Shown here piece after piece: positions 34,895-52,443 of a stretch of DNA of 57,673 nt (within the stretch, counting starts at the first letter, position 1; each line of letters starts with the position of its first letter). Location: NCBI GenBank assembly GCA_051744325.1, contig JBNJCY010000001.1:1-57673 (forward strand), written 5' to 3'. The notes under the pieces were generated by a model that was not told the DNA's origin, did not search any database, and worked only from the letters and a program-made list of their open reading frames with translations. The position numbers were made by a program, and so were the translations under genes. Source of the stretch: Actinomycetota bacterium (lineage in GTDB: Bacteria > Actinomycetota > Actinomycetes > Actinomycetales > Actinomycetaceae).

Positions 34895-36127
34895 TTGGAC
34901 GCTGGCCAGATAATCCTGTGGATCATCCTCGCCCTCTTCGTGATCTTCGTGATCACCGCCATCTCACGTGCCGTGCGGATCGTCCCCCAGGCGGTCGCCC
35001 TGATCGTCGAACGGCTCGGGAAGTTCCAGACCGTCATGTACGCCGGCCTGCACTTCCTGATCCCGTTCGTGGACCGGGTGCGCGCCGGGGTGGACCTGCG
35101 CGAGCAGGTCGTGTCCTTCCCGCCGCAACCCGTCATCACGTCTGACAACCTCGTCGTCTCCATCGACACGGTCATCTACTTCCAGGTCACCGACCCCAAG
35201 GCTGCCACCTACGAGATCGCCAACTACATCCTCGGCATCGAGCAGCTCACCGTCACCACGCTCCGGAACGTCATCGGCTCGATGGACCTGGAGCAGACCC
35301 TGACATCGCGTGACCAGATCAACGGCCAGCTCCGTGGCGTCCTCGACGAGGCCACCACGAAGTGGGGCATTCGCGTCAACCGCGTCGAGCTCAAGGCGAT
35401 CGACCCGCCCGCCTCGGTCCAGGGCTCCATGGAGCAGCAGATGAAGGCGGAGCGGGACCGCCGGGCGGCGATCCTGACGGCTGAGGGCGTGAAGCAGTCG
35501 GCGATCCTCGAGGCCGAGGGCGAGAAGCAGTCGGCGATCCTCCGGGCCGAGGGCCAGGCGCAGGCCGCGATCCTGCGGGCGCAGGGCGAGTCCCGCGCCA
35601 TCCTCCAGGTCTTCGACGCCATCCACCGCGGCAACGCGGACCCGAAGCTGCTCGCCTACCAGTACCTCCAGACACTGCCCAAGATCGCGAACGGCACCTC
35701 GTCGAAGATGTGGATCGTCCCGACCGAGTTCACCACGGCGCTCGACGCCATCACCAAGGGCTTCGGCGGCGGCGGCACCGGAGGCGAAGGGGCCTCGGTC
35801 GAGCCGGCGGGGCCGGTGGACTTCGGCCCGCACGAAGCCACGATGGTGGACGACCTCGCCAACACCTCCCTCCAGGACCCGTCGGAGGCCCTGCGGGAGG
35901 CGCAGTCCGAGGCTGCCCGCGCCACCGCGGACGCCACGGAGGCGGGTGAAGGTTCGGGGATGCCCTTCTCCAGGTCCGCCGAGGCCGGGATGCGGTCGCA
36001 GGACACGCCCCCGCTCCCGGACCGCCATCCGTGGGATGCCGACCAGGAGCAGCCCCCGGGCGGCCGCCGCGCCGACAAGCCGACCGAGGAGCCGCAGTCA
36101 CCGGAGGAACGCTTCGGGCCCCGGTGA
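34895..36127 (+). CDS. SPFH/Band-7 (stomatin-like) protein with a long disordered C-terminal tail
   Basis: RIVPQAVALIVERLGKFQTV, ITSDNLVVSIDTVIYFQV, and an AEGxKQSAILxAEG coiled-coil repeat. The last 130 aa or so are Gly/Ala/Glu/Pro-rich. The start is the listed TTG. Confidence 0.88.
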   Translation: MDAGQIILWIILALFVIFVITAISRAVRIVPQAVALIVERLGKFQTVMYAGLHFLIPFVDRVRAGVDLREQVVSFPPQPVITSDNLVVSIDTVIYFQVTDPKAATYEIANYILGIEQLTVTTLRNVIGSMDLEQTLTSRDQINGQLRGVLDEATTKWGIRVNRVELKAIDPPASVQGSMEQQMKAERDRRAAILTAEGVKQSAILEAEGEKQSAILRAEGQAQAAILRAQGESRAILQVFDAIHRGNADPKLLAYQYLQTLPKIANGTSSKMWIVPTEFTTALDAITKGFGGGGTGGEGASVEPAGPVDFGPHEATMVDDLANTSLQDPSEALREAQSEAARATADATEAGEGSGMPFSRSAEAGMRSQDTPPLPDRHPWDADQEQPPGGRRADKPTEEPQSPEERFGPR

Positions 36128-36966
36128 TCGTCGAGCTGTCCGAACCGGATGACCCGAGGGTCGTCGAGTACACCAACCTCACCGACGTCGCGCTCCGGAC
36201 CCGTGTGGAACCGGAGTGCGGCGTCTACATCGCCGAGAGTTCCGCAGTCATGCGGCGTGCCGTGGCGGCCGGGCACCGGCCGCGGTCCTTCCTCATGGCC
36301 CCCCGGTGGCTCGAGTCCGTCGCGGACGTCCTCGAGGCTGCCGGTGGAGAGAGCGACGGCGGTGAGCTGCCCGTGTACGTCGCACCTGAGGAGCTGCTGC
36401 GCGGCGTCACGGGCTTCCACCTTCACCGCGGGGCCCTGGCCGCCATGGAACGGCCGGTGCTGCCCGACGTCGCGACCCTGCTGGCGGGCGCCCGTGGCGG
36501 TGCCGGGGCGCGCCGCGTCGTCGTGCTCGAGGACATCGTGGACCACACGAACGTCGGTGCGGCGGTCCGTTCCGCGGCTGCTCTCGGGGTTGACGCCGTC
36601 CTCGTGACGCCCCGCTGTGCGGACCCGCTCTACCGTCGCGCGGTCCGGGTCTCGATGGGCACGATCTTCCAGGTGCCGTGGACGCGGATCGGCCCGTGGC
36701 CCGGCGGGATCGACCTCCTGCGGTCCCTCGGGTTCACGGTGGCGGCCCTCGCTCTCGGGGAGAGTTCGATCCCGCTCGACGAGCTCGCCGACCGCGCCCC
36801 GGAGCGGCTCGCGCTGGTCCTCGGCACCGAGGGTGATGGTCTGGCGGCCCGGACGATCGCCGCGGCGGACCTGAGGGTGACGATCCCCATGGCGGGCGGC
36901 GTGGACTCCCTCAACGTCGCGGCTGCGGGCGCGGTCGCATTCTGGGCCACCAGAGTGCCCGGCTGA
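36124..36966 (+). CDS. TrmH/SpoU-family RNA 2'-O-methyltransferase
   Basis: A GTG at 36124 (GTGA overlap with the SPFH stop). VVVLEDIVDHTNVGAAVRSAAALG, LVLGTEGDGL, IPMAGGVDSLNVAAAGAVA. Confidence 0.85.
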   Translation: MIVELSEPDDPRVVEYTNLTDVALRTRVEPECGVYIAESSAVMRRAVAAGHRPRSFLMAPRWLESVADVLEAAGGESDGGELPVYVAPEELLRGVTGFHLHRGALAAMERPVLPDVATLLAGARGGAGARRVVVLEDIVDHTNVGAAVRSAAALGVDAVLVTPRCADPLYRRAVRVSMGTIFQVPWTRIGPWPGGIDLLRSLGFTVAALALGESSIPLDELADRAPERLALVLGTEGDGLAARTIAAADLRVTIPMAGGVDSLNVAAAGAVAFWATRVPG

Positions 36967-37002
36967 CTGCGCGCCGCTTTCGCGAACAGGCGTCGTGAAC
37001 GC

Positions 37003-37008
37003 TAGATT
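37003..37008 (+). promoter_or_regulatory. Candidate -10 hexamer TAGATT, implying a leaderless heliorhodopsin mRNA
   Basis: TAnnnT-type hexamer ending 6 nt before the ATG at 37015. No Shine-Dalgarno sequence lies in between. Inference only. Confidence 0.3.
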
Positions 37009-37014
37009 GAGTCC

Positions 37015-37779
37015 ATGACCACTCGTACCATCACCCCCGCCGAACAGGGCAGGCTGCGAACCCTCAACCTCGCGGCCGCCGCTCTCCACCTCGCCCAGGC
37101 CATCGCCGTCGTGGTTCTCGCCACCGACTTCGCCCTCCCGATCACCGCGTCCTACATCGCCGGCCCGCCCGGAACCCCCCCGGGTCCCGCCACCAACGTG
37201 GCCGACCTCCCCACCGGCCTCGCGGTCGCGGGCTTCCTGTTCCTGTCCTTCCTCGCGCACCTCATCGTCTCGACGGTGTGGTTCAAGAACTACATCGGGG
37301 ATCTCTCCCGGCAGATCAACCGGGCACGCTGGGTCGAGTACTCCCTGTCCTCGACCCTGATGCTCGTGGTCATCTCCCAACTGGTGGGCATCACGGACGT
37401 CAGCGCCCTCATCGGGATCTCCGGGGCGAACGTCTCGATGATCCTGTTCGGCTGGCTCCAGGAGAAGTACGAGGTGGCCGGGGAAGGTGGCTGGCTCCCG
37501 TTCATCTTCGGCTGCATCGCCGGAATCGTGCCCTGGCTCGCGGTCCTCTTCTACACGATCGCCCCCGGCTCGGACGCCGAGCCCCCCACCTTCGTCTACG
37601 CGATCGTGGTCTCTCTCTTCCTGTTCTTCAACGTCTTCGGCCTCAACCAGTGGCTGCAGTACCGCGCGAAGGGTCGCTGGGCCGACTACCTGGTGGGCGA
37701 GCGTGGCTACATCGTCCTCAGCCTCGTGGCCAAGTCCCTGCTCGCCTGGCAGGTCTTCGGCGGGACCCTGGCGGCCTAG
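37015..37779 (+). CDS. Heliorhodopsin (inverted-topology microbial rhodopsin)
   Basis: 254 aa, 7 TM. NLAAAALHLAQAIAVVVLATDFALPITASYIAGPPG, RWVEYSLSSTLM, ANVSMILFGWLQEKY, LPFIFGCIAGIVPWLAV, FVYAIVVSLFLFFN and GERGYIVLSLVAKSLLAWQVFGGTL are near-identical to strings I recall from prototype heliorhodopsin 48C12. That includes the counterion Glu (WVEYS) and the Schiff-base Lys (SLVAKS). Confidence 0.9.
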   Translation: MTTRTITPAEQGRLRTLNLAAAALHLAQAIAVVVLATDFALPITASYIAGPPGTPPGPATNVADLPTGLAVAGFLFLSFLAHLIVSTVWFKNYIGDLSRQINRARWVEYSLSSTLMLVVISQLVGITDVSALIGISGANVSMILFGWLQEKYEVAGEGGWLPFIFGCIAGIVPWLAVLFYTIAPGSDAEPPTFVYAIVVSLFLFFNVFGLNQWLQYRAKGRWADYLVGERGYIVLSLVAKSLLAWQVFGGTLAA

Positions 37780-38001
37780 ATGCGCTCCTACGGGCGATCG
37801 ATCCTCCTGGCCATCGCACTCGGTGCGCTGGGTGCGGCGATCGGTGCCCTCGTCTACGTGATGCTGAACCCGATGCTGGAGGAGTCCTCAGGATTCCTCC
37901 GCGAACTCCAGGGCCCGCTGTGGAACCTCGTCCCACTGCTGGTGCTCGTTGGTATCGGCCTCGGGTTCTGGCTGGGGCGGCCCCGCGGCCCGAAGGCCTG
38001 A
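37780..38001 (+). CDS. Hypothetical 73-aa two-TM membrane protein abutting the heliorhodopsin stop
   Basis: The ATG immediately follows the TAG at 37777-37779. It has two hydrophobic helices separated by an acidic loop (NPMLEESSGFLRELQG). G/C-rich third positions are consistent with coding. I recognise no family. Confidence 0.45.
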   Translation: MRSYGRSILLAIALGALGAAIGALVYVMLNPMLEESSGFLRELQGPLWNLVPLLVLVGIGLGFWLGRPRGPKA

Positions 38002-38002
38002 C

Positions 38003-38599
38003 TCACAGCGCCAGGCCCTCGACCACCTCGCTGCCCGGCACCTCCCCGAGGAGGGCGCCGGGCAGCAGCAGTTTCGAGCCCCGCACACCGGAGCCGACGA
38101 TTGCCCAGCCGTCCAGCACGCGCGTGTCCACCAGGAGGCGCCACCGTCCCTCGCCCACGGGAAGGCCGAGCGGGGTGATCGCGCCGTACTCCATGCCGGA
38201 GGCCACCACCGCGAGTTCAGTGGCCCAGAAGCTCGCCTTCCGGACGTCGAGGAGGCGCTTGACCCGGTTGTTGACGTCCGCCCGCGTGGTGGCGCGCACC
38301 ACGCACGCGGCCACCCGTTCCTCGCCGCCACGCCGGCCCGCGACGATCACGCAGTTCGCGGAGAGCTCCAGAGGCAGGTCGTAGCGCTCGGACATCGCCG
38401 CGGTGTCGGCGTGGTCCGAGTCGATGGCGGCCACCAGGACGTCGTCGGACGCCGCCGGGACCCGGTCCACGAGCTCGTGGAGGCCTGTCACCACGGGTTC
38501 GCCGAGCAGTTCGGGGGCGTCGACGGCGGGCACCCACGTGAGCGTGCCGAGCCGGGCTGCGCCGTCGCGAAGTCGAGTCGGTTCCATGGTGCTCCTCAC
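38003..38599 (-). CDS. YbaK/EbsC-type aminoacyl-tRNA deacylase (trans-editing domain)
   Basis: SANCVIVAGRRGGEERVAACVVRATTRADVNNRVKRLL...ASGMEYGAITPLGLP...GSGVRGSKLLLP is typical of the YbaK/ProX family. The GTG at 38599 overlaps the trmL stop (GTGA); an alternative ATG is at 38587. Confidence 0.8.
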   Translation of the reverse strand: MRSTMEPTRLRDGAARLGTLTWVPAVDAPELLGEPVVTGLHELVDRVPAASDDVLVAAIDSDHADTAAMSERYDLPLELSANCVIVAGRRGGEERVAACVVRATTRADVNNRVKRLLDVRKASFWATELAVVASGMEYGAITPLGLPVGEGRWRLLVDTRVLDGWAIVGSGVRGSKLLLPGALLGEVPGSEVVEGLAL

Positions 38600-39057
38600 G
38601 TGCCGGCCGCGAAGTCATGCTGCCGCCACGCCTCGTAGGTCGCGATCGCGGCCGAGTTGGACAGGTTCAGGGAACGGATCCCGGGCAGCATCGGGATCCT
38701 GACGAGGTCGGTGACGCGCGGGTCCGCCAGCACCCAGGCCGGCAACCCGTCGGGCTCCGGGCCGAACAGGAGGGCGTCACCCGCCGCGTAGGCGATGTCG
38801 GTGTACCGGGTGGTGGCCCGCCCCGTGAACGCGTACAGGCGCCCGGGCAGGGCGGCGACGGCGGCGTCGAGGTCCGGGTGGACGACGACGCGGGCGAGGT
38901 CGTGGTAGTCGAGCCCGGCGCGGCGCAGGTGGGCGTCCGTCAGCTCGAACCCGAGCGGTTCCACGAGGTGCAGCGTCGCTCCCGTGCAGGCCACCATCCT
39001 GATGGCGTTGCCGGTGTTCGGCGGGATTCGCGGGGAGAAGAACACGACGTGGAACAC
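38596..39057 (-). CDS. trmL: tRNA (cytidine/uridine-2'-O)-methyltransferase TrmL
   Basis: MFHVVFFSPRIPPNTGNAIRMVACTGATLHLVEPLGF...RSLNLSNSAAIATYEAWRQ. Confidence 0.9.
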   Translation of the reverse strand: MFHVVFFSPRIPPNTGNAIRMVACTGATLHLVEPLGFELTDAHLRRAGLDYHDLARVVVHPDLDAAVAALPGRLYAFTGRATTRYTDIAYAAGDALLFGPEPDGLPAWVLADPRVTDLVRIPMLPGIRSLNLSNSAAIATYEAWRQHDFAAGT

Positions 39058-39067
39058 GGCCCCCAGC

Positions 39068-39479
39068 CTACTGGGGCGCCGGGGGAGGGCTGGACCCCAC
39101 CAGGTTCGCGGGGCGCCAGCCGCAGGCTGTTGAGGAAGGCGTCCTCCGAGGCGTGCTCCAGGTCGGACACCTTGAGGTCGGCCTCGCGAAGTCGCCCGTC
39201 CTCGAGCAGTTCCTCCCGCAGCACGCCGGGCAGCAGCCCGACCTCAGCCGGCGGGGTCAGCCACTCGTCCCCGATGCGCAGCGCGAGGTTCCGGTTGTGC
39301 ACTCGGTGAGCGGCCCACCCGGGGGTGTGGGAGATGACGTCGAACACGTCCGCCAGCGGCATCGTCTTGAGGGCCTCCAGCGCCCTCCCGCCGCATCCCA
39401 GGCGTCGCCGCCCTCGTAGCGCACGCCCGCCCACCACCCACGCCCCCGCCCGGGCGAGGGCCTCCGCCCGGGCCACCAC
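39068..39479 (-). pseudogene. Truncated, probably frameshifted remnant of a class IV aminotransferase / aminodeoxychorismate lyase-like gene
   Basis: ORF 38940..39479 contains only the C-terminal third of the fold (NRNLALRIGDEWLTPPAEVGLLPGVLREELL...ADLKVSDLEHASEDAFLNSLR). It then reads 118 nt into trmL. After NSL, a neighbouring frame gives GWRPANLVGSSPPPAPQ-stop, ending at about 39068 just before trmL. There is no room for the N-terminal two-thirds, because the PEBP gene occupies that space. Confidence 0.4.
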
Positions 39480-39538
39480 CCGCGGGCCTTCGGAGACGGA
39501 GGCCGCGAGGAGCGTATCGGCGGGCGGGTCGGTGAAGG

Positions 39539-39598
39539 CGCGCGGTCGCGGGGGTCGGCGGAGTCAGCGCGCGCCCGCGCGGTCGCGGGGGTCGGCGG
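39539..39598. repeat. 23-nt perfect direct repeat (cgcgcggtcgcgggggtcggcgg) x2, period 37 nt
   Basis: Copies at 39539-39561 and 39576-39598, in the non-coding or decayed stretch between the aminotransferase remnant and the PEBP gene. Confidence 0.5.
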
Positions 39599-39607
39599 GG
39601 ATGTCAA

Positions 39608-39631
39608 AGGCGGCCCGGGGAGATGCCGCCT
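39608..39631 (-). terminator. Hairpin just downstream of the PEBP-family gene stop
   Basis: 7-bp stem AGGCGGC/GCCGCCT with a 10-nt loop, 1 nt after the stop. On the minus-strand RNA it is followed by UUUGACAU. Confidence 0.4.
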
Positions 39632-39632
39632 C

Positions 39633-40160
39633 TCAGCGCTGGAAGGTGACCGTGAGGTACGCGCGGGCCAGGGTGTGGAACAGTGCGGTGAAGGAGGCCT
39701 TCGTCGCGGAGGAGTCCTCGTCCAGGTCGAGGGTGTCCACGTCGAGGGCGTGCACCGCGAAGATGTACCGGTGCACGTGGTCGCCCCTCGGCGGGGCGGC
39801 ACCCATGTACGCGTGGTCTCCGCCGTCGTTGCGCAGGTGGAACGCCGCGCCCGCCAGCGCGAGGTCCGATTCGCCGGCACCCTGTGCCAGTTCAGTCCTG
39901 GCGGAGTCGAGGTCCAGGACCGTCCAGTGCCAGAAGCCCGCCGGGGTGGGGGCATCCGGGTCGAAGCAGGTCACCATGAAGCCCTTCGTTCCCTCCGGGA
40001 AGCCGGACCACGAGAGGTGGGGGGAGATGTTGCCGCCCGCGGCGATGTGGAGCTCGGGCATCGGCTGGCTGTCCACCAGGTCATCCGAGCGCAACTCGAA
40101 CGTGGGGGTGGCGGGCAGGTACTCGTAGGGGTTCGGTGCGATGGGTCGGGTCAGGTCCAT
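39633..40160 (-). CDS. YbhB/YbcL-family Raf-kinase-inhibitor-like (PEBP) protein
   Basis: SPHLSWSGFPEGTKGFMVTCFDPDAPTPAGFWHWTV...GDHVHRYIFAVHALD is the PEBP signature. Confidence 0.88.
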   Translation of the reverse strand: MDLTRPIAPNPYEYLPATPTFELRSDDLVDSQPMPELHIAAGGNISPHLSWSGFPEGTKGFMVTCFDPDAPTPAGFWHWTVLDLDSARTELAQGAGESDLALAGAAFHLRNDGGDHAYMGAAPPRGDHVHRYIFAVHALDVDTLDLDEDSSATKASFTALFHTLARAYLTVTFQR

Positions 40161-40247
40161 GTCTACCTCCTTGCCCCTACGCTACTTCGCCGGCGCTCGG
40201 GACGGGTGGCGATGCTCCCCCCTTTCCCCGTGTTCCCCCTTTCCTCG

Positions 40248-40269
40248 TGTCGGTGGCAGGTCGTAGACT
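40248..40269 (+). promoter_or_regulatory. RecA-NDp / PafBC-type DNA-damage promoter motif TGTCGGTG-N8-TAGACT
   Basis: Exact match to the tTGTCRgtg-8nt-TAnnnT motif described for mycobacteria. The -10 element ends 7 nt before the imuA' ATG, which implies a leaderless transcript. Confidence 0.6.
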
Positions 40270-40284
40270 CGAACGCATGTTCGA
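40269..40284. promoter_or_regulatory. LexA SOS box TCGAAC-GCAT-GTTCGA
   Basis: Perfect match to the actinobacterial LexA consensus TCGAAC-N4-GTTCGA. It overlaps the -10/TSS region and the imuA' start codon. Confidence 0.75.
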
Positions 40285-40915
40285 CAATGAGCGGGTGGCC
40301 ACGGCCCGGGCAGCGCTCGCCCGTGCCGAGGTGGCCACGGGAGTGCGCTCTCGGCTGGGCACGGTGGACCTGCCCGCCGGCCTCGGCGCGCTCCTCCCCG
40401 GCGGGTTGGCCCGGGGGAGCGTGCTGGGCGTGCGTGGGTCCACGAGCGTCCTGTTCTCCGTCATGGCCGCGGCCATGGGGACCGACGGGTGGGCGGCGAG
40501 CATCGGAATGTCCGGCCTCGGGTGGCTCGCGGCCAGCGAGGCCGGGGTCGACCTCGCCCGGGTGGCCAGCATCCCCCGGGCCGGCGCCGCGGTGGCGGAC
40601 GTGGTCGCTGCCTGCGTGGACGGGTTCGACGTCGTCGTGCTCGGGGACGGCCTCGATCTCGGCGCCGGCGTCCGGCGCTCCCTGCTGGGACGCATCCGGT
40701 CCCACGGCACGGTGGTGCTCGCCACCTGGCCCGGGGCACCCGTGCTGCACGCCACCGTCCGCGGCGGCGAGGGCTGTGGGGCCGGCACCGGCCACCTGCG
40801 CGACCGCGTGGTCGCCGTACGGCGGGAGGGGGCGCCCACCACCGTCCTGCTTCGGATGGGGTCACGTCCTGAGTCCCTCACCCCCGCCCTCCGGCACCTG
40901 CAGGCGGTGTCCTGA
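40277..40915 (+). CDS. imuA': ImuA'-like RecA-fold protein of the SOS mutasome cassette
   Basis: 212 aa from the internal ATG. LPGGLARGSVLGVRGSTSVLFSVMAAA is a degenerate RecA/KaiC-like P-loop region. The gene sits directly upstream of imuB-dnaE2 and behind a LexA box. Confidence 0.72.
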   Translation: MFDNERVATARAALARAEVATGVRSRLGTVDLPAGLGALLPGGLARGSVLGVRGSTSVLFSVMAAAMGTDGWAASIGMSGLGWLAASEAGVDLARVASIPRAGAAVADVVAACVDGFDVVVLGDGLDLGAGVRRSLLGRIRSHGTVVLATWPGAPVLHATVRGGEGCGAGTGHLRDRVVAVRREGAPTTVLLRMGSRPESLTPALRHLQAVS

Positions 40916-42456
40916 TGCGCCTGGTGGTGGTGTGGATTCCGGACTGGCCAGTCGTCGCGGCTGTGGGTGAGGGACTGGCCGCCCCCGCGACCCCGGTGGC
41001 GGTGCACGACGGCCGCGGACTGGTGGTGGTCTCCGCCGCCGCGCGGGCGCTCGGAGTGCGCACAGGGATGCGGCGCCGCCACGCCCAGCGGGTCTGCCCG
41101 GACCTCGTCCTGCTCGCGAAGGACGAGGCCCGGGACGCGCGGGCCTTCGAGCCGGTGGTGCAGTCCGTGGAGGAGGTGGTCGCCGAGGTGGCGGTCCTGC
41201 GCCCGGGGATGGCGCTGGCCGAGGCGGCCGGCCCCGTCCGGCACGCCGGGTCGGAGGAGGCGCTCGCCGAGGCCGTGGTCGGGGCGGTGGCCCGCCACAG
41301 CGGGGCGGAGGCGTACGTGGGGATCGCGCAGGGGTTGCTCACCGCGATCCTCGCGGCGCGCGCCTCAGCGATCGTGCCCGGGCCGGGGACCTCGGCGTTC
41401 CTGGCCGGACACCCGGTCACCGCGCTGCGGCACGGCGCGATGACCCGGCAGTCCCGTGAGGAGGTGGACGCCCTCCTCGAGGTGTTCGGCCAGCTCGGCC
41501 TCCGCACTCTCGGCGACATCGCCGCCCTGCCCGCCGCGGACATGCTGGCCCGGTTCGGCGAGGCCGGACGGAGGGCGCACGCCCTGGCCCGGGGGGCCTT
41601 CGTCCCCACCGTCCCGGGGGAACGGCTGCAGGGGGCCGTGGTGGTGTCCCGGGAGCTGGACCCGCCCCTGGAGCGGTCCGATGCGGCGGCCTTCGCCGCC
41701 CGCACGCTGGCGGAGGAACTCACCGGCCGCCTGGCCGGGCGGGCCTGCGGCCGGTTGCGGGTGACGGCGCGTACCACCGACGGCGCCGAGCTCTCCCGGC
41801 TCTGGACGGCCGAGTCCGTCCTTGACGCCGCCGAGGCCACCGACCGGGTGCGCTGGCAGCTCGACGGTTGGCTCTCGGGACGCAGCGGGGTTCCCCCCAG
41901 CGCGCCGCTGCACGTCCTGGAACTCGCGGCGGAGGAACTCCGCGGGGCGCTGGCCGGCCAGGAGCAGCTGTGGGGGCGGCCGGGCCGTTCGGCGGCCCAG
42001 GCGCAGCGCACGGTCGTGCGGCTGCAGGGCATGCTCTCCGAGGCCGTGTGGCGGCCGGTACTGCAGGGCGGACGGGATCCCCGGACCCGGGTCCGGCTGG
42101 TCGCCTGGAACGACGACCCGGTGGCGCTGCGCCGCCTCGACGCCCCCTGGCCGGGGCAGCTGCCGTCCCCCGCTCCCAGCACCGTGTTCGACCACCCCCG
42201 CGAGGTGGGGGTGTACGACGACGCCGGCCGGATGGTCGCCGTCGATGCGCGCGGGCAGGTCAGTGCCGTCCCGGTGCGCGTGGCGGCGGACCGGGACCAC
42301 GCCGTCGTCGCGTGGTCCGGGCCGTGGCCGATCAGCGAGACGTGGTGGTCCGCGCCGCGCCGTGGAGCGTGGCTGCAGGTCACCCCCGCCGAGGGGCCGT
42401 CGATGCTGCTGTCCGCCCAGGGCGGCACGTGGCTGCTGGAGGGGCTCTATGACTAG
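40915..42456 (+). CDS. imuB: ImuB, catalytically inactive Y-family polymerase-like mutasome subunit
   Basis: MRLVVVWIPDWPVVAA...ARALGVRTGMRRRHAQRVCPDLVLL is typical of ImuB. It lacks the canonical DxD catalytic start seen in DinB. There is a 1-nt overlap with imuA'. Confidence 0.88.
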   Translation: MRLVVVWIPDWPVVAAVGEGLAAPATPVAVHDGRGLVVVSAAARALGVRTGMRRRHAQRVCPDLVLLAKDEARDARAFEPVVQSVEEVVAEVAVLRPGMALAEAAGPVRHAGSEEALAEAVVGAVARHSGAEAYVGIAQGLLTAILAARASAIVPGPGTSAFLAGHPVTALRHGAMTRQSREEVDALLEVFGQLGLRTLGDIAALPAADMLARFGEAGRRAHALARGAFVPTVPGERLQGAVVVSRELDPPLERSDAAAFAARTLAEELTGRLAGRACGRLRVTARTTDGAELSRLWTAESVLDAAEATDRVRWQLDGWLSGRSGVPPSAPLHVLELAAEELRGALAGQEQLWGRPGRSAAQAQRTVVRLQGMLSEAVWRPVLQGGRDPRTRVRLVAWNDDPVALRRLDAPWPGQLPSPAPSTVFDHPREVGVYDDAGRMVAVDARGQVSAVPVRVAADRDHAVVAWSGPWPISETWWSAPRRGAWLQVTPAEGPSMLLSAQGGTWLLEGLYD

Positions 42457-45400
42457 GTACGCCGAACTGCACGCCCACTCGGCGTTCTCCTTCCTCGACG
42501 GCGCCAGCCAGCCCGAGGAGCTGGTGGCCGAGGCTGCGCGGCTGGGCCTCACCGGGATCGGACTCACCGACCACAACGGGTTGTACGGGGTGGTGCGCCT
42601 GGCTGAGGCGGCCCGAACCGCCGGCATGCCCACGGTGCTGGGGGCGGAGCTAACCCTGGGTGGGGCGGCTCGCACCGGGGGCCGGGCGGTGGACGAGGCC
42701 GCCGCCCACGACCCGTCCGGGCCGCACCTGCTCGTCCTCGCCCGCGGGCCGGAGGGATACCGGCGGCTGTCCCACGCCATCGCCGAGGCCCACCTGCGGA
42801 CCGGGCGCAAGGACGTGGCCGACCACACGGTGGAGGAGCTGGCGGGGGCGGCCGAGGGCAACTGGCTGGTGCTCACCGGGTGCCGCAAGGGCTCGGCACG
42901 CCGCGCGCTGCGGTACGGGGGAGCCGAGTCCGCGCGTGCCGAGCTGGACCGGCTCGTCGCCCTGTTCGGGGCCGGCAACGTGGCGGTCGAGATCACCCAC
43001 CACCAGACCGCCGCGGACGAGGCGCTGCACGACACCCTGGCAGAACTCGCGGACGCGGCCCGCCTCCCGCTCGTGGCGACGGGAGGGGTGCACTGCGCGC
43101 GCCCCTCCGACCAGGACCTCGCCGACGTGCTGGCCGCCACCCGCGCCCGGCGCACCGTGGAGGAGCTGGACGGCTGGCTGCCCGCCCACCCCGCGCACCT
43201 GCGCTCCGCGGCGGAGATGCTCGCGCTGCACCGCCGCCATCCCGGCGCCGTCGCCACCGCCGCGTCCCTCGCCGCCGAGTGCTCCTTCGACCTGAACCTC
43301 ATCGCCCCCCACCTGCCCCCGCACCCGGTGCCGGACGGACACACGGAGGCCACGTGGCTGGCCGAACTCACCCACCGGGGGGCGAGCGAGCGCTACGGGC
43401 CCCGCCACGCCGAGCGCATGCCGGGCGCGTGGGCCACCATCGACAAGGAGCTGGCGATCATCACGGAGCTGGGTTTTCCCGGCTACTTCCTGATCGTCCA
43501 CGAGATCGTCGACTTCTGCCGGCGGCAGGGCATCCTCTGCCAGGGGCGCGGCTCGGCGGCCAACTCGGCGGTGTGCTTCGCGCTCGGGATCACGGCGGTG
43601 GACGCCGTGCGCCACCGGATGCTGTTCGAGCGGTTCCTCTCCCCGGGGCGCTCCGGGCCGCCCGACATCGACATGGACATCGAGTCCGGCCGCCGCGAGG
43701 AGGTCATCCAGTTCGTCTACGACCGCTACGGCCGCCGCCACGCCGCCCAGGTGGCCAACGTGATCTCCTACCGGCCACGCTCCGCGGTGCGGGACGTGGC
43801 CCGCGCGCTGGGGTACGACATCGGGCAGGCCGACGCCTGGTCCAAGCAGATCGAGCGCTGGAAGGATGTGCCGGACGACGTCGGCATCCCCACGCCTGTG
43901 GCGGCCCTCGCCCAGCGCATGCTGCGCCTGCCCCGCCACCTCGGCATCCACTCCGGCGGCATGGTGCTGTGCGACCGGCCCGTCATCGACGTCTGTCCCG
44001 TCGAGTGGGCCACCATGCCGGGGCGCACCGTGCTGCAGTGGGACAAGGACGACTGCGCGGACGCCGGACTGGTCAAGTTCGACCTCCTCGGCCTGGGCAT
44101 GCTCACCGCGTTGCGGATCGCGTTCGCCGAGCTCACCGCGCAGGGGGTGCTCCACGAGGGCCGCCCGATCGGGCTGCACGACCTGCCCCAGGACGACCCA
44201 CCCGTCTACGACCTGATGTGCGCCGCGGACACGGTGGGGATCTTCCAGGTGGAGTCGCGCGCCCAGATGGCCACCCTGCCACGGCTGCGCCCCCGCTGCT
44301 TCTACGACCTCGTGGTGGAGGTCGCCCTCATCCGGCCCGGCCCCATCCAGGGTGGCTCGGTGAACCCCTACCTCCGCCGCCGGCTCGGGACCGAGCCCGC
44401 CACCTATCTCCATCCGCTGCTCAGGCCCGCCCTGGAGAAGACGCTCGGGGTCCCGCTGTTCCAGGAGCAGCTCATGCAGATCGCAGTCGACGTCGCCGGA
44501 TTCACCCCCGCCGAGGCGGACCGGTTGCGGAAGGCGATGGGCTCCAAGCGGTCGCTGGAGAAGATGGAGGCGCTGCGCGGGCGGCTGATGGAGGGGATGG
44601 CAGCCAACGGCATCACCCCGGAGGTGGGGGAGCGGATCTTCGCTAAACTGCAGGCATTCGCGGACTTCGGCTTCCCCGAGTCACACTCCTTCTCCTTCGC
44701 CTACCTCGTGTACGCGTCCGCCTGGCTCAAGGTGCACCACCCCGAGGCGTTCTACGCCGCCCTACTGGCCTCCCAGCCGATGGGGTTCTACTCGCCTCAG
44801 ACCCTCGTCGCGGACGCCCGCCGCCACGGGGTGCGCGTCCTCGCCGCGGACGTCACCGCCTCCGGGGTCCAGCCGGGAGTCGAGCGGGTGGCGGGCGGCG
44901 GCGTCGCCCCTCCCGACGGCGTCCCCCGCACCCCCGACGGCGTCCCCCTCGTCCGCCCCAACCCCCGCCTCGCGGTCCGGCTGGGGCTGGCCCAGGTCCG
45001 CACCATCGGCGGGGACAAGGCGGCCGAGATCGTCGCGGAACGGGAGCGGGAACCGTTCACCTCGCTCGCGGACCTCGCCCGGCGCGTGCCGCTCACCCGA
45101 GAGCAGCTCGAGGCGCTCGCCACCGCCGACGCGCTGCGTGCCTGGGGGAGCCGCCGGGAGAACCTCTGGTCGGCCGGGGCGCTGGCCCAGGAGTACGGCG
45201 TGGTGCACGAGGCGTGGCTCCAGCCCCCGCTGCCGGGTACCGCCGTCGGGGCGCGGCCGCCGGCACTGCCGGCGATGGACGAGGTGGAGGAGGCGGTGGC
45301 GGACGTGTGGGCCACCGGGGTCACCCCGCACACCTTCCCCACCCGGTTCGTCCGGCCTCGGCTGGAGGCATCCGGGGTGGTGGCGGTGGCGGACCTGGAG

Positions 45401-45688
45401 CGCCGCGAGCCGGGGGAGCGGCTCAGGGTGGGAGGAGTGGTCACCCATCGGCAGCGCCCGCACACCGCCTCGGGGATCACGTTCCTATCGTTGGAGGACG
45501 AGACCGGCCTGCTGAACGTGGTGTGCTCGGCGGGCCTGTGGCGGCGGTACCGGAGGCTGGCGCGCACGAGCGCGGCCCTCGTGGTCCGCGGCACGCTGGA
45601 GCGGGCGGACGGCGTCACCAGCCTCGTGGCGGACGGCATGGAGCACCTGTCGCTCGAGGTGCCCTCACGGTCACGGGACTTCCGGTGA
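42449..45688 (+). CDS. dnaE2: Error-prone DNA polymerase DnaE2 (ImuC)
   Basis: From the internal ATG: YAELHAHSAFSFLDGAS (PHP domain), GFPGYFLIV, PDIDMDIES, RHLGIHSGGMVL, QVESRAQM, plus a C-terminal OB domain. It is about 1079 aa and overlaps the imuB stop by 8 nt. Confidence 0.95.
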   Translation: MTRYAELHAHSAFSFLDGASQPEELVAEAARLGLTGIGLTDHNGLYGVVRLAEAARTAGMPTVLGAELTLGGAARTGGRAVDEAAAHDPSGPHLLVLARGPEGYRRLSHAIAEAHLRTGRKDVADHTVEELAGAAEGNWLVLTGCRKGSARRALRYGGAESARAELDRLVALFGAGNVAVEITHHQTAADEALHDTLAELADAARLPLVATGGVHCARPSDQDLADVLAATRARRTVEELDGWLPAHPAHLRSAAEMLALHRRHPGAVATAASLAAECSFDLNLIAPHLPPHPVPDGHTEATWLAELTHRGASERYGPRHAERMPGAWATIDKELAIITELGFPGYFLIVHEIVDFCRRQGILCQGRGSAANSAVCFALGITAVDAVRHRMLFERFLSPGRSGPPDIDMDIESGRREEVIQFVYDRYGRRHAAQVANVISYRPRSAVRDVARALGYDIGQADAWSKQIERWKDVPDDVGIPTPVAALAQRMLRLPRHLGIHSGGMVLCDRPVIDVCPVEWATMPGRTVLQWDKDDCADAGLVKFDLLGLGMLTALRIAFAELTAQGVLHEGRPIGLHDLPQDDPPVYDLMCAADTVGIFQVESRAQMATLPRLRPRCFYDLVVEVALIRPGPIQGGSVNPYLRRRLGTEPATYLHPLLRPALEKTLGVPLFQEQLMQIAVDVAGFTPAEADRLRKAMGSKRSLEKMEALRGRLMEGMAANGITPEVGERIFAKLQAFADFGFPESHSFSFAYLVYASAWLKVHHPEAFYAALLASQPMGFYSPQTLVADARRHGVRVLAADVTASGVQPGVERVAGGGVAPPDGVPRTPDGVPLVRPNPRLAVRLGLAQVRTIGGDKAAEIVAEREREPFTSLADLARRVPLTREQLEALATADALRAWGSRRENLWSAGALAQEYGVVHEAWLQPPLPGTAVGARPPALPAMDEVEEAVADVWATGVTPHTFPTRFVRPRLEASGVVAVADLERREPGERLRVGGVVTHRQRPHTASGITFLSLEDETGLLNVVCSAGLWRRYRRLARTSAALVVRGTLERADGVTSLVADGMEHLSLEVPSRSRDFR

Positions 45689-48751: not shown

Positions 48752-50509
48752 ATGTCCATCCGGAAAGGCACCTGCGTGCTCCTCAAGTTGTCCCTGCGCC
48801 ACCTGCGCCCGTACATGCGGTCGGTGTACGCGGTGATCGTGCTGCAGGTGCTGCAGACCATTGCCGCGCTGGCACTGCCCACCCTCAACGCCGACCTCAT
48901 CGACCGGGGAGTCGTGCAGGCCGACATCCCGTTCATCTGGAACACGGGCGCGGTCATGCTCGCCATCTCCGCCGTGCAGGTGTTGTGCGCGATCGGGGCG
49001 GCGTACCTCGGGGCGCGCACGGCGATGTCCGTGGGCCGCGACATCCGCCGGGAAGTCTTCGGCACGGTCCAGGGGTTCGGCTCGATCGAGCTCACCAGGT
49101 TCGGGCCACCTTCGCTGATCACGAGGTCGACCAACGACGTGCAGCAGATCCAGACCGTCCTCATGATCACGTTCACGATCATGGTCCAGGTGCCGATCAT
49201 GCTGTTCGGCGGGGTGTTCATGGCGATGCGGCAGGACGCGCAGCTCTCGTGGCTGCTCGTCGCGATCGTGCCGGTCCTCGCACTGGTGGTCGGACTCGCA
49301 ATGTTGCGCATGGGGCCGCTCTTCAAGCTGATGCAGGCGCGCATCGACGCGATCAACATGGTGCTGCGCGAGCAACTGGCTGGCGTGAGTGTGATCCGGG
49401 CCTTCGTCCGCCAGGACGCCGAGCGTGCCCGCTTCCACCGGGTCAACACCGACCTGTTCGACACCTCGCTCAAGGTCGGGCTCTGGATGGCCTTCCTCTT
49501 CCCCGCAGTGCAGGTGATCGTGTTCTCCGCCCAGGTCGGGGTGATCTGGTTCGGTGGCCTGCGGATCGACTCGGGCGGCATGGAGGTGGGCTCGCTCATC
49601 GCCTTCATCAACTACCTCATGCAGATCTTCATGTCCGTGATGATGGCGACGATGATGTTCATGATCGTGCCTCGCGGCGAGGTGTCCGCGGACCGCGTGC
49701 AGGAGGTGCTCGGCTCCGAGGTGGCAATCGCCAGTCCAACCCTGGCGGCGGCCCTCCCCGACGAGCCGCTCGAATTCGCGTTCCGGTCCGTGGCGTTCCG
49801 GTACCCGGGTGCCGAGCATGACGTCCTCACCGACATCACCGTCACCCTGAGGCGCGGCACCACCACCGCCGTCGTCGGGTCCACCGGTGCGGGCAAGACC
49901 ACGCTGGTGAACCTGCTGCCGCGGCTCATCGACCCGACGAACGGCACGGTCGAGGCCGGGGGGGTGCCCCTGAATGCCCTGGACCTCGGGGAGTTGCGCC
50001 GCCGCATCGCCCTCGTGCCCCAGCGGACCTTTCTGTTCTCGGGGACGATCGCGTCCAACCTGCGGCTCGGCAGGCCCGACGCCACCGAGGACGAGATGTG
50101 GGCCGCGCTGGACGCGGCCCAGGCGAGCGAGTTCGTCCGGCGGCTTCCGGAAGGGCTGGAAGCCCAGGTCGAACAGGGCGGCAAGAACTTCTCCGGGGGA
50201 CAGCGTCAGCGCCTGACGATCGCCCGGGCGCTGGTGCGGAAGGCGGACCTCACCGTGTTCGACGACTCCTTCTCCGCACTCGACTACTCCACCGACCTGC
50301 GGCTCCGCACCGCGCTCCGCACGGTCCTTGCGGACCGGGCGGTCCTGATCGTGGCGCAGCGCGTGGCGACCATCCGCGGCGCCGACGCGATCATGGTCCT
50401 CGACGACGGCCGCGTCGCCGCCGTCGGCACGCACGCCCAGCTGATGGAGTGTTGTGAAACGTACCGGGAGATCGTCCTCTCCCAGCTCTCCGCGGAGGAG
50501 GCGGCGTGA
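48752..50509 (+). CDS. ABC exporter, fused permease/ATPase (heterodimer subunit 1)
   Basis: Six N-terminal TM segments (type I exporter), GSTGAGKTT, FSGGQRQRLTIARAL, TVFDDSFSALD. The start may instead be the GTG at 48776 (VLLKLSLRHLRPY). Confidence 0.9.
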   Translation: MSIRKGTCVLLKLSLRHLRPYMRSVYAVIVLQVLQTIAALALPTLNADLIDRGVVQADIPFIWNTGAVMLAISAVQVLCAIGAAYLGARTAMSVGRDIRREVFGTVQGFGSIELTRFGPPSLITRSTNDVQQIQTVLMITFTIMVQVPIMLFGGVFMAMRQDAQLSWLLVAIVPVLALVVGLAMLRMGPLFKLMQARIDAINMVLREQLAGVSVIRAFVRQDAERARFHRVNTDLFDTSLKVGLWMAFLFPAVQVIVFSAQVGVIWFGGLRIDSGGMEVGSLIAFINYLMQIFMSVMMATMMFMIVPRGEVSADRVQEVLGSEVAIASPTLAAALPDEPLEFAFRSVAFRYPGAEHDVLTDITVTLRRGTTTAVVGSTGAGKTTLVNLLPRLIDPTNGTVEAGGVPLNALDLGELRRRIALVPQRTFLFSGTIASNLRLGRPDATEDEMWAALDAAQASEFVRRLPEGLEAQVEQGGKNFSGGQRQRLTIARALVRKADLTVFDDSFSALDYSTDLRLRTALRTVLADRAVLIVAQRVATIRGADAIMVLDDGRVAAVGTHAQLMECCETYREIVLSQLSAEEAA

Positions 50510-52443
50510 GCGGGCCACACGGGCCGCGCGGCGGACCCGGCGTCGGACCGGGCGGCCGGGTCGTCGACCCGACGCGGAAGGTGAAGGACTTCAGCGCCGT
50601 GTTCACCCGCCTGCTCGGCACCCTCCACCCCCAACGCTTCCGCCTGGCTGCCGTCGTGCTGGCCACGGGCCTCTCCGTGTTCCTCAACGTGCTCGGCCCG
50701 AAGGTCCTCGGGGACGCCACCAACGTCATCTTCGCCGGCGTCGTCGGACGGATGGTTCCCGCCGGCGTCACCAAGGAGGAGGCGGTGGCCGGACTCCGGG
50801 CGGCGGGGGATTCCGAGCTCGCCGACCTGATGTCCGCCGTCGACTTCGTTCCCGGTCAGGGCATCGACCTGGCGCTGCTCGGGCAGACCGTCCTCACCGT
50901 CCTTGGCCTGTACGTGGGTGCGGCGCTCGCGGCGCTGGTCGCCGCTCGCATCCTCACCCGGGTGGTCCAGGAGACGGGGTTCGCGCTGCGGCGCACGGTC
51001 CAGGAGAAGATCGACCGGCTGCCGCTGGGCTACCTCTCCGGGCATGCCCGCGGCGACGTCCTCTCCCGCGTCACCAACGACATCGACAACATCACGCAGA
51101 CGCTGCAGCAGACGCTGTCCCAGGTGGTCACCGCGGTCCTCACCGTTCTCGGCGTCCTGGGCATGATGGTCTGGCTCTCGTGGCAGCTCTCCCTCATCGC
51201 CCTCGTGGTGGTGCCACTCTCCGCGTACGTCACCGTGACCATCGCGAAGAGGGCGCAGCCCAACTTCGTGAAGCAGTGGAGGGCGACGGGCGACGTCGGC
51301 GGAGTCGTCGAGGAGGCCTTCACCGGTCACGAGGTGATCGCGGCCTTCGGCGGCGAGGCGCGGTTCGCAAGTGACTTCGCCACCTCGAACGATGAACTGT
51401 ACGACGCGTCGTGGCGCGCGCAGTTCATCTCCAGCACGATGATGCCCACGATGATGTTCCTGTCGAACATCTCCTACGTGGCCGTCGCCGTGGTCGGTGG
51501 CCTCAAGGTCCTGAACGGCACGATCACGCTCGGCGAGGTGCAGGCCTTCATCCAGTACTCGCGGCAGTTCAACCAGCCGCTCGCCCAGCTCGCATCGATG
51601 GCGAACCTGCTGCAGTCGGGCCTCGCGTCCGCCGAACGCGTGTTCGAGCTCCTCGACGAGGAGGAGGAGCGCCCCGACAAGGTCACCGACGCGCTGCCGG
51701 CCCAGGTGGGCGAGGTCGTGTTCGACGACGTCGGGTTCTCCTACGTGCCCGGCACCCCCGTCATCACCAATCTCTCGCTCCGCGCGGCACCCGGCCAGAC
51801 GGTCGCCATCGTCGGTCCCACCGGGGCCGGCAAGACCACGCTCGTGAACCTGCTGATGCGGTTCTACGAGGTGGACTCGGGCCGCATCCTCATCGACGGC
51901 GTGGACACCGCCGCCGTCTCCCGGGACGACGTCCGCTCCCGTATCGGCATGGTGCTGCAGGACACGTGGCTGCTCGAGGCCTCCATCGCGGACAACATCG
52001 CCTATGCCCGGCCAGAGGCCACCGAGGAGGAGATGCTGGCGGCCGCCGTGGCGACCAACGTGGACAGGCTGGTACGCACGCTGCCCGAAGGTTACGAGAC
52101 GGTGGTCACCGACGAGTCGATCTCCGCAGGCGAGAAGCAGCTCATCACCATCGCACGCGCGTTCCTCGCCGACCCGCAGATCCTCGTCCTGGATGAGGCG
52201 ACCTCTTCGGTGGACACCCGCACGGAGGTGCTCGTGCAGCACGCGATGCACGCTCTGCGCCAAGGGCGCACATCGTTCGTCATCGCGCACCGGCTCTCCA
52301 CGATCCGCGATGCCGACCTGATCGTCGTGATGGAGCACGGCGACGTGGTCGAGCAGGGCACCCACGAGTCGCTGATCGCGGCCGGCGGCGCCTATGCCCG
52401 GCTCTACCGGGCCCAGTTCGAGAGTGCGATGACAGAGGAGTGA
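50506..52443 (+). CDS. ABC exporter, fused permease/ATPase (heterodimer subunit 2)
   Basis: GTGA overlap with the previous gene. GPTGAGKTT, ISAGEKQLITIARAF, LVLDEATSSVD, IAHRLSTI. Confidence 0.9.
   Translation: MSGPHGPRGGPGVGPGGRVVDPTRKVKDFSAVFTRLLGTLHPQRFRLAAVVLATGLSVFLNVLGPKVLGDATNVIFAGVVGRMVPAGVTKEEAVAGLRAAGDSELADLMSAVDFVPGQGIDLALLGQTVLTVLGLYVGAALAALVAARILTRVVQETGFALRRTVQEKIDRLPLGYLSGHARGDVLSRVTNDIDNITQTLQQTLSQVVTAVLTVLGVLGMMVWLSWQLSLIALVVVPLSAYVTVTIAKRAQPNFVKQWRATGDVGGVVEEAFTGHEVIAAFGGEARFASDFATSNDELYDASWRAQFISSTMMPTMMFLSNISYVAVAVVGGLKVLNGTITLGEVQAFIQYSRQFNQPLAQLASMANLLQSGLASAERVFELLDEEEERPDKVTDALPAQVGEVVFDDVGFSYVPGTPVITNLSLRAAPGQTVAIVGPTGAGKTTLVNLLMRFYEVDSGRILIDGVDTAAVSRDDVRSRIGMVLQDTWLLEASIADNIAYARPEATEEEMLAAAVATNVDRLVRTLPEGYETVVTDESISAGEKQLITIARAFLADPQILVLDEATSSVDTRTEVLVQHAMHALRQGRTSFVIAHRLSTIRDADLIVVMEHGDVVEQGTHESLIAAGGAYARLYRAQFESAMTEE

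Follow-up and report, generated by a model that had tools for sequence, protein, structure and literature searches.

A heliorhodopsin gene abutted by a gene for a small membrane hairpin in an actinobacterial chromosome: probably a lineage-specific juxtaposition

A heliorhodopsin (HeR) gene followed without a gap by a short open reading frame (ORF) was detected in a 57,673-nucleotide (nt) stretch of an Actinomycetaceae genome (GenBank assembly GCA_051744325.1, contig JBNJCY010000001.1), hereafter the window. The outputs of most heliorhodopsins are unknown, so any conserved operon partner is a useful lead, and the initial annotation had proposed that these two genes form a photoreceptor-partner unit. 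We find instead that the short ORF is a real gene which is most likely a co-transcribed, lineage-specific neighbour of the HeR gene, and that the arrangement probably represents a lineage-specific juxtaposition with no dedicated sensor-partner system behind it. We favour this reading because the pair is restricted to one clade, because the family of the small protein occurs elsewhere without HeR, and because a sister lineage lacks the small gene. The two genes are as follows:

37015 to 37779, plus strand: heliorhodopsin gene, 254 amino acids (aa), identified by Pfam family PF18761, alignment with the prototype 48C12 and active-site residues.
37780 to 38001, plus strand: gene for a membrane protein (73 aa, helical hairpin) from an unnamed actinobacterial family, identified by substitution rates, profile search and AlphaFold2.

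The TAG stop codon of the HeR gene occupies 37777-37779 and the ATG of the small gene starts at 37780. These ORF positions, the TAG-ATG junction, the peptide motifs quoted in the initial annotation and a TAGATT site ahead of the HeR gene were all borne out when the sequence was read.

From the heliorhodopsin side, we surveyed the top 80 of at least 483 loci in species-representative genomes, with HeR identities of 58-96%. Searches with the small protein (tblastn) and with a hidden Markov model (HMM) of its family on six-frame ORFs matched only one of these 80 loci, L001, whose HeR is 96% identical to that of the window. No other small two-helix ORF abutted HeR among the ORFs starting -25 to +200 nt from the HeR stop in these loci; the nearest case was a 103-aa ORF with two transmembrane (TM) helices at +81 in L080, which matches no Pfam family. 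The pair is thus confined to a clade with at least 96% HeR identity, and the proposed photoreceptor-partner unit did not hold up in this comparison, the small ORF being conserved beside HeR in 1/80 loci and there only within a near-identical clade. The closest named genome, Tessaracoccus sp. SD287 (L066 4001-4765), carries an 85%-identical HeR without the small gene, flanked there by genes for an amino-acid permease and an Fe-ADH.

The genes downstream of related HeRs were diverse, including SOUL, DUF1801, DUF554, DAGK, PMT_2 and SRPBCC, which fits published surveys in which recurrent operon neighbours are listed and many others are idiosyncratic (PMC8612252, PMC11109279). One of these counts 448 HeRs, of which 173 share an operon with other genes; no more than 79 of the 173 belong to its ten recurrent groups (PMC11109279). 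The window small protein belongs to none of the ten groups and has no Pfam family above cut-off, and the upstream SpoU methylase, set apart from HeR by a spacer bearing the putative promoter, does not count as a recurrent-group neighbour either. Literature searches yielded no description of a small protein with two helices as a heliorhodopsin partner.

Several other downstream genes recurred within the survey itself. A gene for a SOUL heme-binding protein lay directly downstream of HeR on the same strand in 11/80 loci (L004, L007, L009, L016, L024, L026, L029, L030, L032, L039 and L048), with a HeR-SOUL gap of -4 to about +50 nt in the five loci measured; SOUL is absent from the ten recurrent groups of PMC11109279. 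DUF1801 was found directly downstream of HeR in 4 loci, with a weak fifth match upstream in L059, and DUF554 downstream of HeR in 4 Nanopelagicales-type loci.

From the side of the small protein, we screened 24 metagenome loci and L111-L114 by tblastn (n=28) and two further loci, L120 and L121, by their gene tables. HeR occurred in the flanks of 1/28 screened loci, namely L087, which belongs to the same clade (96% HeR identity), and L118 is a further clade member carrying the pair; among the 31 family loci examined, HeR was present only in these two. No HeR was listed in the gene tables of L120 and L121, and none was found in the upstream DNA of about 15 distinct non-clade family loci with at least 800 nt upstream. 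The SpoU, YbaK and Band_7 neighbours of the window were likewise absent from all 28 screened loci except L087. Elsewhere the family gene was found in other contexts, including moeA-GNAT-GlpR, adenine glycosylase, Tad pilus with phosphoribosyltransferase, and tandem universal-stress-like genes. All-against-all BLAST of the family flanks showed tandem universal-stress-like proteins and an SDR recurring in a few soil contigs and yielded no general partner gene among the recurrent neighbours.

In two long contigs, L111 (1-5258) and L120 (1-4225), a moeA-GNAT acetyltransferase block, accompanied by GlpR in L120, precedes the family gene and may be the ancestral neighbourhood of the small-protein family. 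GAF-ANTAR and phosphoribosyltransferase genes recur near the family gene in L113, L120 and L121.

The most informative comparison came from a search with YbaK, the product of the convergent gene downstream, which revealed a sister lineage in three samples (L115-L117) with 82% YbaK and 89% HeR identity to the window. Its gene order is the same as in the window, NfeD-Band7-SpoU-HeR-YbaK(-)-SpoU(-), and the stops of HeR and ybaK overlap by 4 nt in a palindromic CTAG (e.g. L115 1570-1573). This lineage lacks the 225 nt in which the window clade has the small gene, and the family HMM had no match within the 5.6-6.6-kb loci of L115-L117. Because this syntenic lineage keeps an 89%-identical HeR without the small gene, the small gene appears as a presence/absence difference between close relatives at an otherwise fixed locus, and the pairing would have arisen between HeR and ybaK either by local insertion in the window lineage or by deletion in the sister lineage. 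The best named matches of the window YbaK are from Georgenia species at about 68% identity, in keeping with the Micrococcales-like host assumed in the initial annotation. At the ybaK locus of Georgenia yuyongxinii (YbaK 68% identical), both HeR and the small gene are missing. The 85%-identical Tessaracoccus HeR in a different context, taken with a window YbaK closest to Georgenia (68%), suggests that heliorhodopsin genes are transferred between actinobacterial orders.

The 254-aa product is a full-length heliorhodopsin, a further member of a well-known family. It matched PF18761 at E=1e-99 with 333.2 bits (cut-off 26.7) over profile positions 1-242 of 242, so the identification made in the initial annotation stands. 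The closest solved structures are chains of 48C12 (6su3, 6uh3 and 9ljj, E about 1e-83), and residues 11-252 align with 9-253 of 48C12 (6su3) at E=8e-84, a near-gapless match over the whole solved chain that supports seven predicted transmembrane helices. H25, H82, E108, S236 and K240 occupy the 48C12 columns H23, H80, E107, S237 and K241, confirming the expected Lys, Glu and His positions (K240, E108, H25, H82): the SxxxK motif of the Schiff-base lysine (K240, codon 37732-37734), the single counterion Glu (E108, codon 37336-37338) and the conserved His pair are all present. The initial annotation had called the protein near-identical to 48C12, which is right for the motifs, with RWVEYSLSS, SMILFGWLQEKY, FGCIAGIVPW and YIVLSLVAKS identical in both, but does not extend to the whole protein, which is 58% identical over 245 aligned columns. 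The prototype (PDB 6su3/6su4/6uh3) thus shares with the window HeR a full-length alignment, the Schiff-base Lys, the counterion Glu and both His, and differs in overall sequence and in genomic setting. By homology, the window HeR would bind all-trans-retinal at K240 with E108 as counterion and absorb green light, the family being characterised by a pigment near 550 nm and an inverted topology with a cytoplasmic N-terminus; it would not pump ions, and may act by touching and modulating another protein in the course of a slow photocycle.

We considered whether the 73-codon ORF could be no gene at all and merely a chance open frame in a GC-rich spacer between HeR and ybaK. Spurious ORFs are common at such G+C content, many overlapping ORFs occur in the region, the small ORF has no Pfam match, and a word-indexed search gave just 5 close homologues. 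The homologous DNA of close relatives, available from ten independent assemblies (L001, L081-L087, L118), speaks against this. In an alignment of six relatives, the variable sites of the small ORF by codon position 1/2/3 numbered 16/9/32, and the pairwise ratio of nonsynonymous to synonymous substitution rates (dN/dS) was 0.20-0.32 in its own frame (pairs with dS >0.25) against 0.9-6 in the other two plus-strand frames, while the antisense shadow frame that shares its third positions contained 2-3 stop codons. GC by codon position was 0.73/0.45/0.84, the same pattern as in the neighbouring genes, in agreement with the genome-typical G/C third positions noted in the initial annotation. The frame also survives a 1-nt indel at the junction, which reads TAG-ATG or TAG-GTG in the window and L081/L082 and TGA-G-GTG in L001 and L083-L085; the ATG start is unique to the window, the relatives having GTG, some with the 1-nt spacer. 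Together with the sharply conserved motif of 63 family representatives found by HMMER and a confident AlphaFold2 hairpin (both below), this frame-specific pattern effectively refutes the non-gene reading already, and we give it practically no credence.

The 73-codon ORF is therefore a real, expressed-type gene. Against L081, the small gene had a dN/dS of 0.25, with lower values in its neighbours (HeR 0.04, YbaK 0.14, the two SpoU genes 0.09-0.13); selection thus constrains it, but less tightly than them. In one clade member, L086 (about 1046-1070, corresponding to window positions about 37791-37852), a 62-nt deletion removes TM1, shifts the frame and leaves a 47-aa ORF, which may stem from decay of the gene or from faulty assembly.

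The small gene belongs to a genuine family for which there is no Pfam or NCBIfam model. A HMMER profile search of 1.84 billion cluster representatives returned 63 proteins at E<=1e-3, 13 of them at E<=1e-10, and with one exception among the 63 the members are 45-130 aa long. An orphan or de novo ORF, which the 5 near-identical word-indexed matches had suggested, was ruled out by this family. The alignment has the core Y-L-x-L-x-P-v-L-E-x-S-x-G-x-l-R-E-l-Q-G-l-l-W-N-l-V-P-l-l-T with Q44, G45, N49 and G58 invariant in the family, all four present in the window protein, where the corresponding segment, N30-P-x-L-E-E-S-x-G-F-L-R-E-L-Q-G-P-L-W-N-L-V-P52, lies at the helix ends around the tip. AlphaFold2 with the family alignment modelled a helical hairpin (helices 3-35 and 40-66, turn 36-39) with a mean predicted local distance difference test score (pLDDT) of 92.9, and TM1 carries a glycine-zipper-like G15-x2-G18-x3-G22. 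Because Lys and Arg residues cluster near the two ends of the protein and acidic ones around its tip, the positive-inside rule suggests an N-in/C-in topology, which would place the conserved tip on the outer face of the membrane.

The only named family members are "hypothetical protein" entries, such as those from Egibacteraceae (HUH07054.1) and Egicoccus (WP_325237308.1). These and similar entries belong to the same family as the window protein, with E-values down to 5e-17 in the profile search and 1e-24 or better in a further search, and share its Y-L-x-L-x-P-x-L-E...R-E-x-Q-G-x-x-W-N-x-V-P motif and two-helix layout; unlike the window protein, they occur in unrelated contexts and often have longer Arg/Pro-rich N-termini. 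None of 34 family members scanned matched a Pfam or NCBIfam model above cut-off, and the only sub-threshold matches were to glycine-zipper, FtsX and ClcA-like models, the weak glycine-zipper matches being explained by the pattern in TM1. A Foldseek search of the hairpin model against the PDB gave nothing below E=1, only generic hairpins such as ATP-synthase c subunits. Several members (P0069, P0038, P0086, P0101, P0111) were named automatically by the Joint Genome Institute as "H+/Cl- antiporter ClcA" or "cell division protein FtsX". Both designations are spurious and unsupported, since the matches to those families are sub-threshold noise.

The spacer between SpoU and HeR is 48 nt long and contains two conserved elements:

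37003 to 37008, plus strand: -10-like hexamer TAGATT (TANNNT), ending 6 nt before the HeR ATG.
36979 to 36995, plus strand: conserved intergenic block TTCGCGAACAGGCGTCG, 17 nt, identical in the six clade-A sequences aligned.

Five clade-A relatives have TAGGTT at the same position, and the sister L115 has TAGGGT. Seven relatives thus keep TANNNT at -12 to -7 of the HeR ATG, whereas the six bases that separate it from the ATG are variable and hold no usable Shine-Dalgarno sequence. Leaderless genes are a known actinobacterial architecture from mycobacterial transcription start site maps, and because the position of TANNNT matches it, an own promoter and a leaderless HeR mRNA, as proposed in the initial annotation, are plausible. 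A sigma-70 consensus scan, poorly suited to GC-rich actinobacterial DNA, did not report a full promoter, a good -35 being absent. The TTCGCGAACAGGCGTCG block includes the perfect 8-bp palindrome TTCGCGAA (36979-36986) and is invariant in the clade despite a dS of about 0.3-0.5; it is not kept in the sister L115, and may be a -35 region or an operator.

Because the small gene starts at the HeR stop codon, the two are very probably co-transcribed, as the initial annotation also proposed: at least 8/10 independent assemblies have a gap of 0-1 nt, and a terminator scan found no site between HeR and the small gene or before ybaK, the only terminator-like sites being inside the HeR coding sequence. 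The short gap and the lack of a Shine-Dalgarno sequence at a proper distance suggest that the small gene is probably translated by termination-reinitiation. The locus would then be a two-gene transcription unit, probably with a leaderless bicistronic transcript. Most probably the small protein is a co-expressed neighbour that serves a membrane role of its own, perhaps as an accessory subunit or an oligomer formed through its glycine-zipper helix, and not a dedicated heliorhodopsin transducer.

Several points weigh against treating the small gene as only a neighbour. The 0-1-nt junction and the purifying selection have been kept across a dS of about 0.5 in ten assemblies, a pattern equally expected of a functional operon; both genes encode membrane proteins; and heliorhodopsins have been found to regulate proteins of their own operons, namely glutamine synthetase (PMC9529153), photolyase (PMC9769723) and an ABC transporter (PMC11109279). 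Missing adjacency elsewhere is not proof of missing interaction, and our view of it comes from the best 80 of the at least 483 HeR loci and, for the small-protein family, from a metagenome scan with a single peptide pattern. The hairpin could thus be a lineage-specific physical partner of HeR (a modulator, stabiliser or transducer) recruited into the operon in fixed proportion. Start and stop codons that abut or lie 1 nt apart with an ATG or GTG start maintained, the constraint on the small gene, its move from other contexts such as moeA-GNAT-GlpR to exactly behind HeR, and the published precedents would all suit such a partner, but the sister lineage does without it at the same locus, the family is otherwise never near HeR in the loci examined, L086 has lost TM1 to a frameshifting deletion, the protein has no signalling domain, and its dN/dS is about six times that of HeR. 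On balance we consider a physical partner rather unlikely, and it seems distinctly unlikely that the captured hairpin acts as a membrane-embedded HeR partner, for example docking by its glycine-zipper helix and conserved acidic outer tip. A single-sequence AlphaFold2 model of the small protein fused to the HeR N-terminus, an arrangement compatible with the predicted topology, was made with no alignment and was of low confidence (pLDDT 54, predicted TM score 0.31); the co-occurrence of the two genes in near-identical genomes only precludes a paired alignment.

Viral HeRs have been reported as light-gated proton or ion paths. The window HeR might similarly work alone, for example as such a path, or with a partner encoded elsewhere, which would make the small gene irrelevant to it, and the operon indeed holds no known partner class. 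One candidate partner is encoded by two adjacent half-size ABC exporter genes, each with ABC_membrane and ABC_tran domains, on the plus strand at 48752-52443; an Ornithinimicrobium HeR regulates a similar heterodimeric pair, OmrDE, in response to light (PMC11109279). OmrDE, however, shares an operon with its HeR, whereas the window genes are about 11 kb away behind several unrelated operons; as regards the small gene, this explanation also overlaps with the lineage-specific juxtaposition that we favour, and as a separate account we hold it to be improbable.

Known heliorhodopsin systems resemble the window locus in part. In the pairs AbHeR-glutamine synthetase (PMC9529153), TfHeR-photolyase (PMC9769723) and OcHeR-OmrDE (PMC11109279), HeR is co-transcribed with its neighbour and regulation by contact is the working idea, as it would be at the window locus. 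Their partners are enzymes or transporters from families that recur beside HeR, whereas the window neighbour is a domainless 73-aa hairpin of one clade. The pair also recalls SRII-HtrII of haloarchaeal phototaxis, in which HtrII, a two-helix protein with HAMP and methyl-accepting domains, consistently accompanies its receptor. The likeness goes no further than a gene for a seven-helix retinal photoreceptor beside one for a protein with two TM helices: unlike HtrII, the window protein is 73 aa, all hairpin, with termini of 7-8 residues and no cytoplasmic signalling module, and the window pair is not adjacent across HeR relatives (1/80 loci, absent in the syntenic sister).

The genes on either side of the unit are an RNA methyltransferase and a convergent ybaK, as the initial annotation had it:

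36031 to 36966, plus strand: SpoU/TrmH-type RNA methyltransferase gene, upstream flank; PF00588 E=9e-34, syntenic in L081, L115 and L118.
38003 to 38599, minus strand: YbaK/EbsC-type aminoacyl-tRNA editing gene (tRNA_edit), convergent downstream flank; PF04073 E=4.5e-10.

The ybaK stop lies 1 nt from that of the small gene. The longest SpoU ORF overlaps the Band_7 gene by 97 nt (36031-36127), compared with a 4-nt overlap in relatives; because the relatives are called at 278-280 aa, the true SpoU start is probably further downstream, near 36124.

The remainder of the window is ordinary chromosomal core, with genes for NAD kinase, MurJ, CTP synthase, Suf, SURF1, SDRs, a GlgC-like protein, a GT4 glycosyltransferase, an ABC ATPase, NfeD and Band_7, and an Rfam scan found one tRNA only. 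Past the HeR unit are PEBP, imuA'-imuB-dnaE2, a HAD hydrolase, an aldose epimerase, the half-ABC exporters and an M3 peptidase. No carotenoid or retinal enzyme (crt, blh or other), glutamine synthetase, photolyase or histidine kinase came to light among the 47 window ORFs scanned with Pfam, in agreement with the initial annotation, which had reported no retinal or carotenoid gene, kinase or glutamine synthetase in the window. The mutagenesis cassette of imuA'-like (MT3502_N in relatives), imuB (IMS) and dnaE2 genes lies downstream of the PEBP gene on the plus strand (40136-45688). A pabB/pabC fusion (Chorismate_bind and Aminotran_4) of 582-584 aa in L081 and L082 and 543 aa in L118 is reduced in the window to a remnant at 39058-39632, with a junction at about 39353-39389. 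The window is without about 1,245 bp present in L081 (7573-8817) and L082 (1748-2993), and the ORF at 38943-39479 (minus strand) matches just Aminotran_4 profile positions 150-215; the remnant may be a pseudogene or an assembly collapse.

The comparative evidence against a conserved partner spares effort on a false lead. Sister lineages with and without the small gene at one locus offer a natural and cheap with/without comparison, and the analysis newly defines a sharply conserved family of small actinobacterial hairpin proteins with 63 cluster representatives. Should the small hairpin nevertheless be a captured partner, it would be the first small protein among the reported partners of heliorhodopsins.

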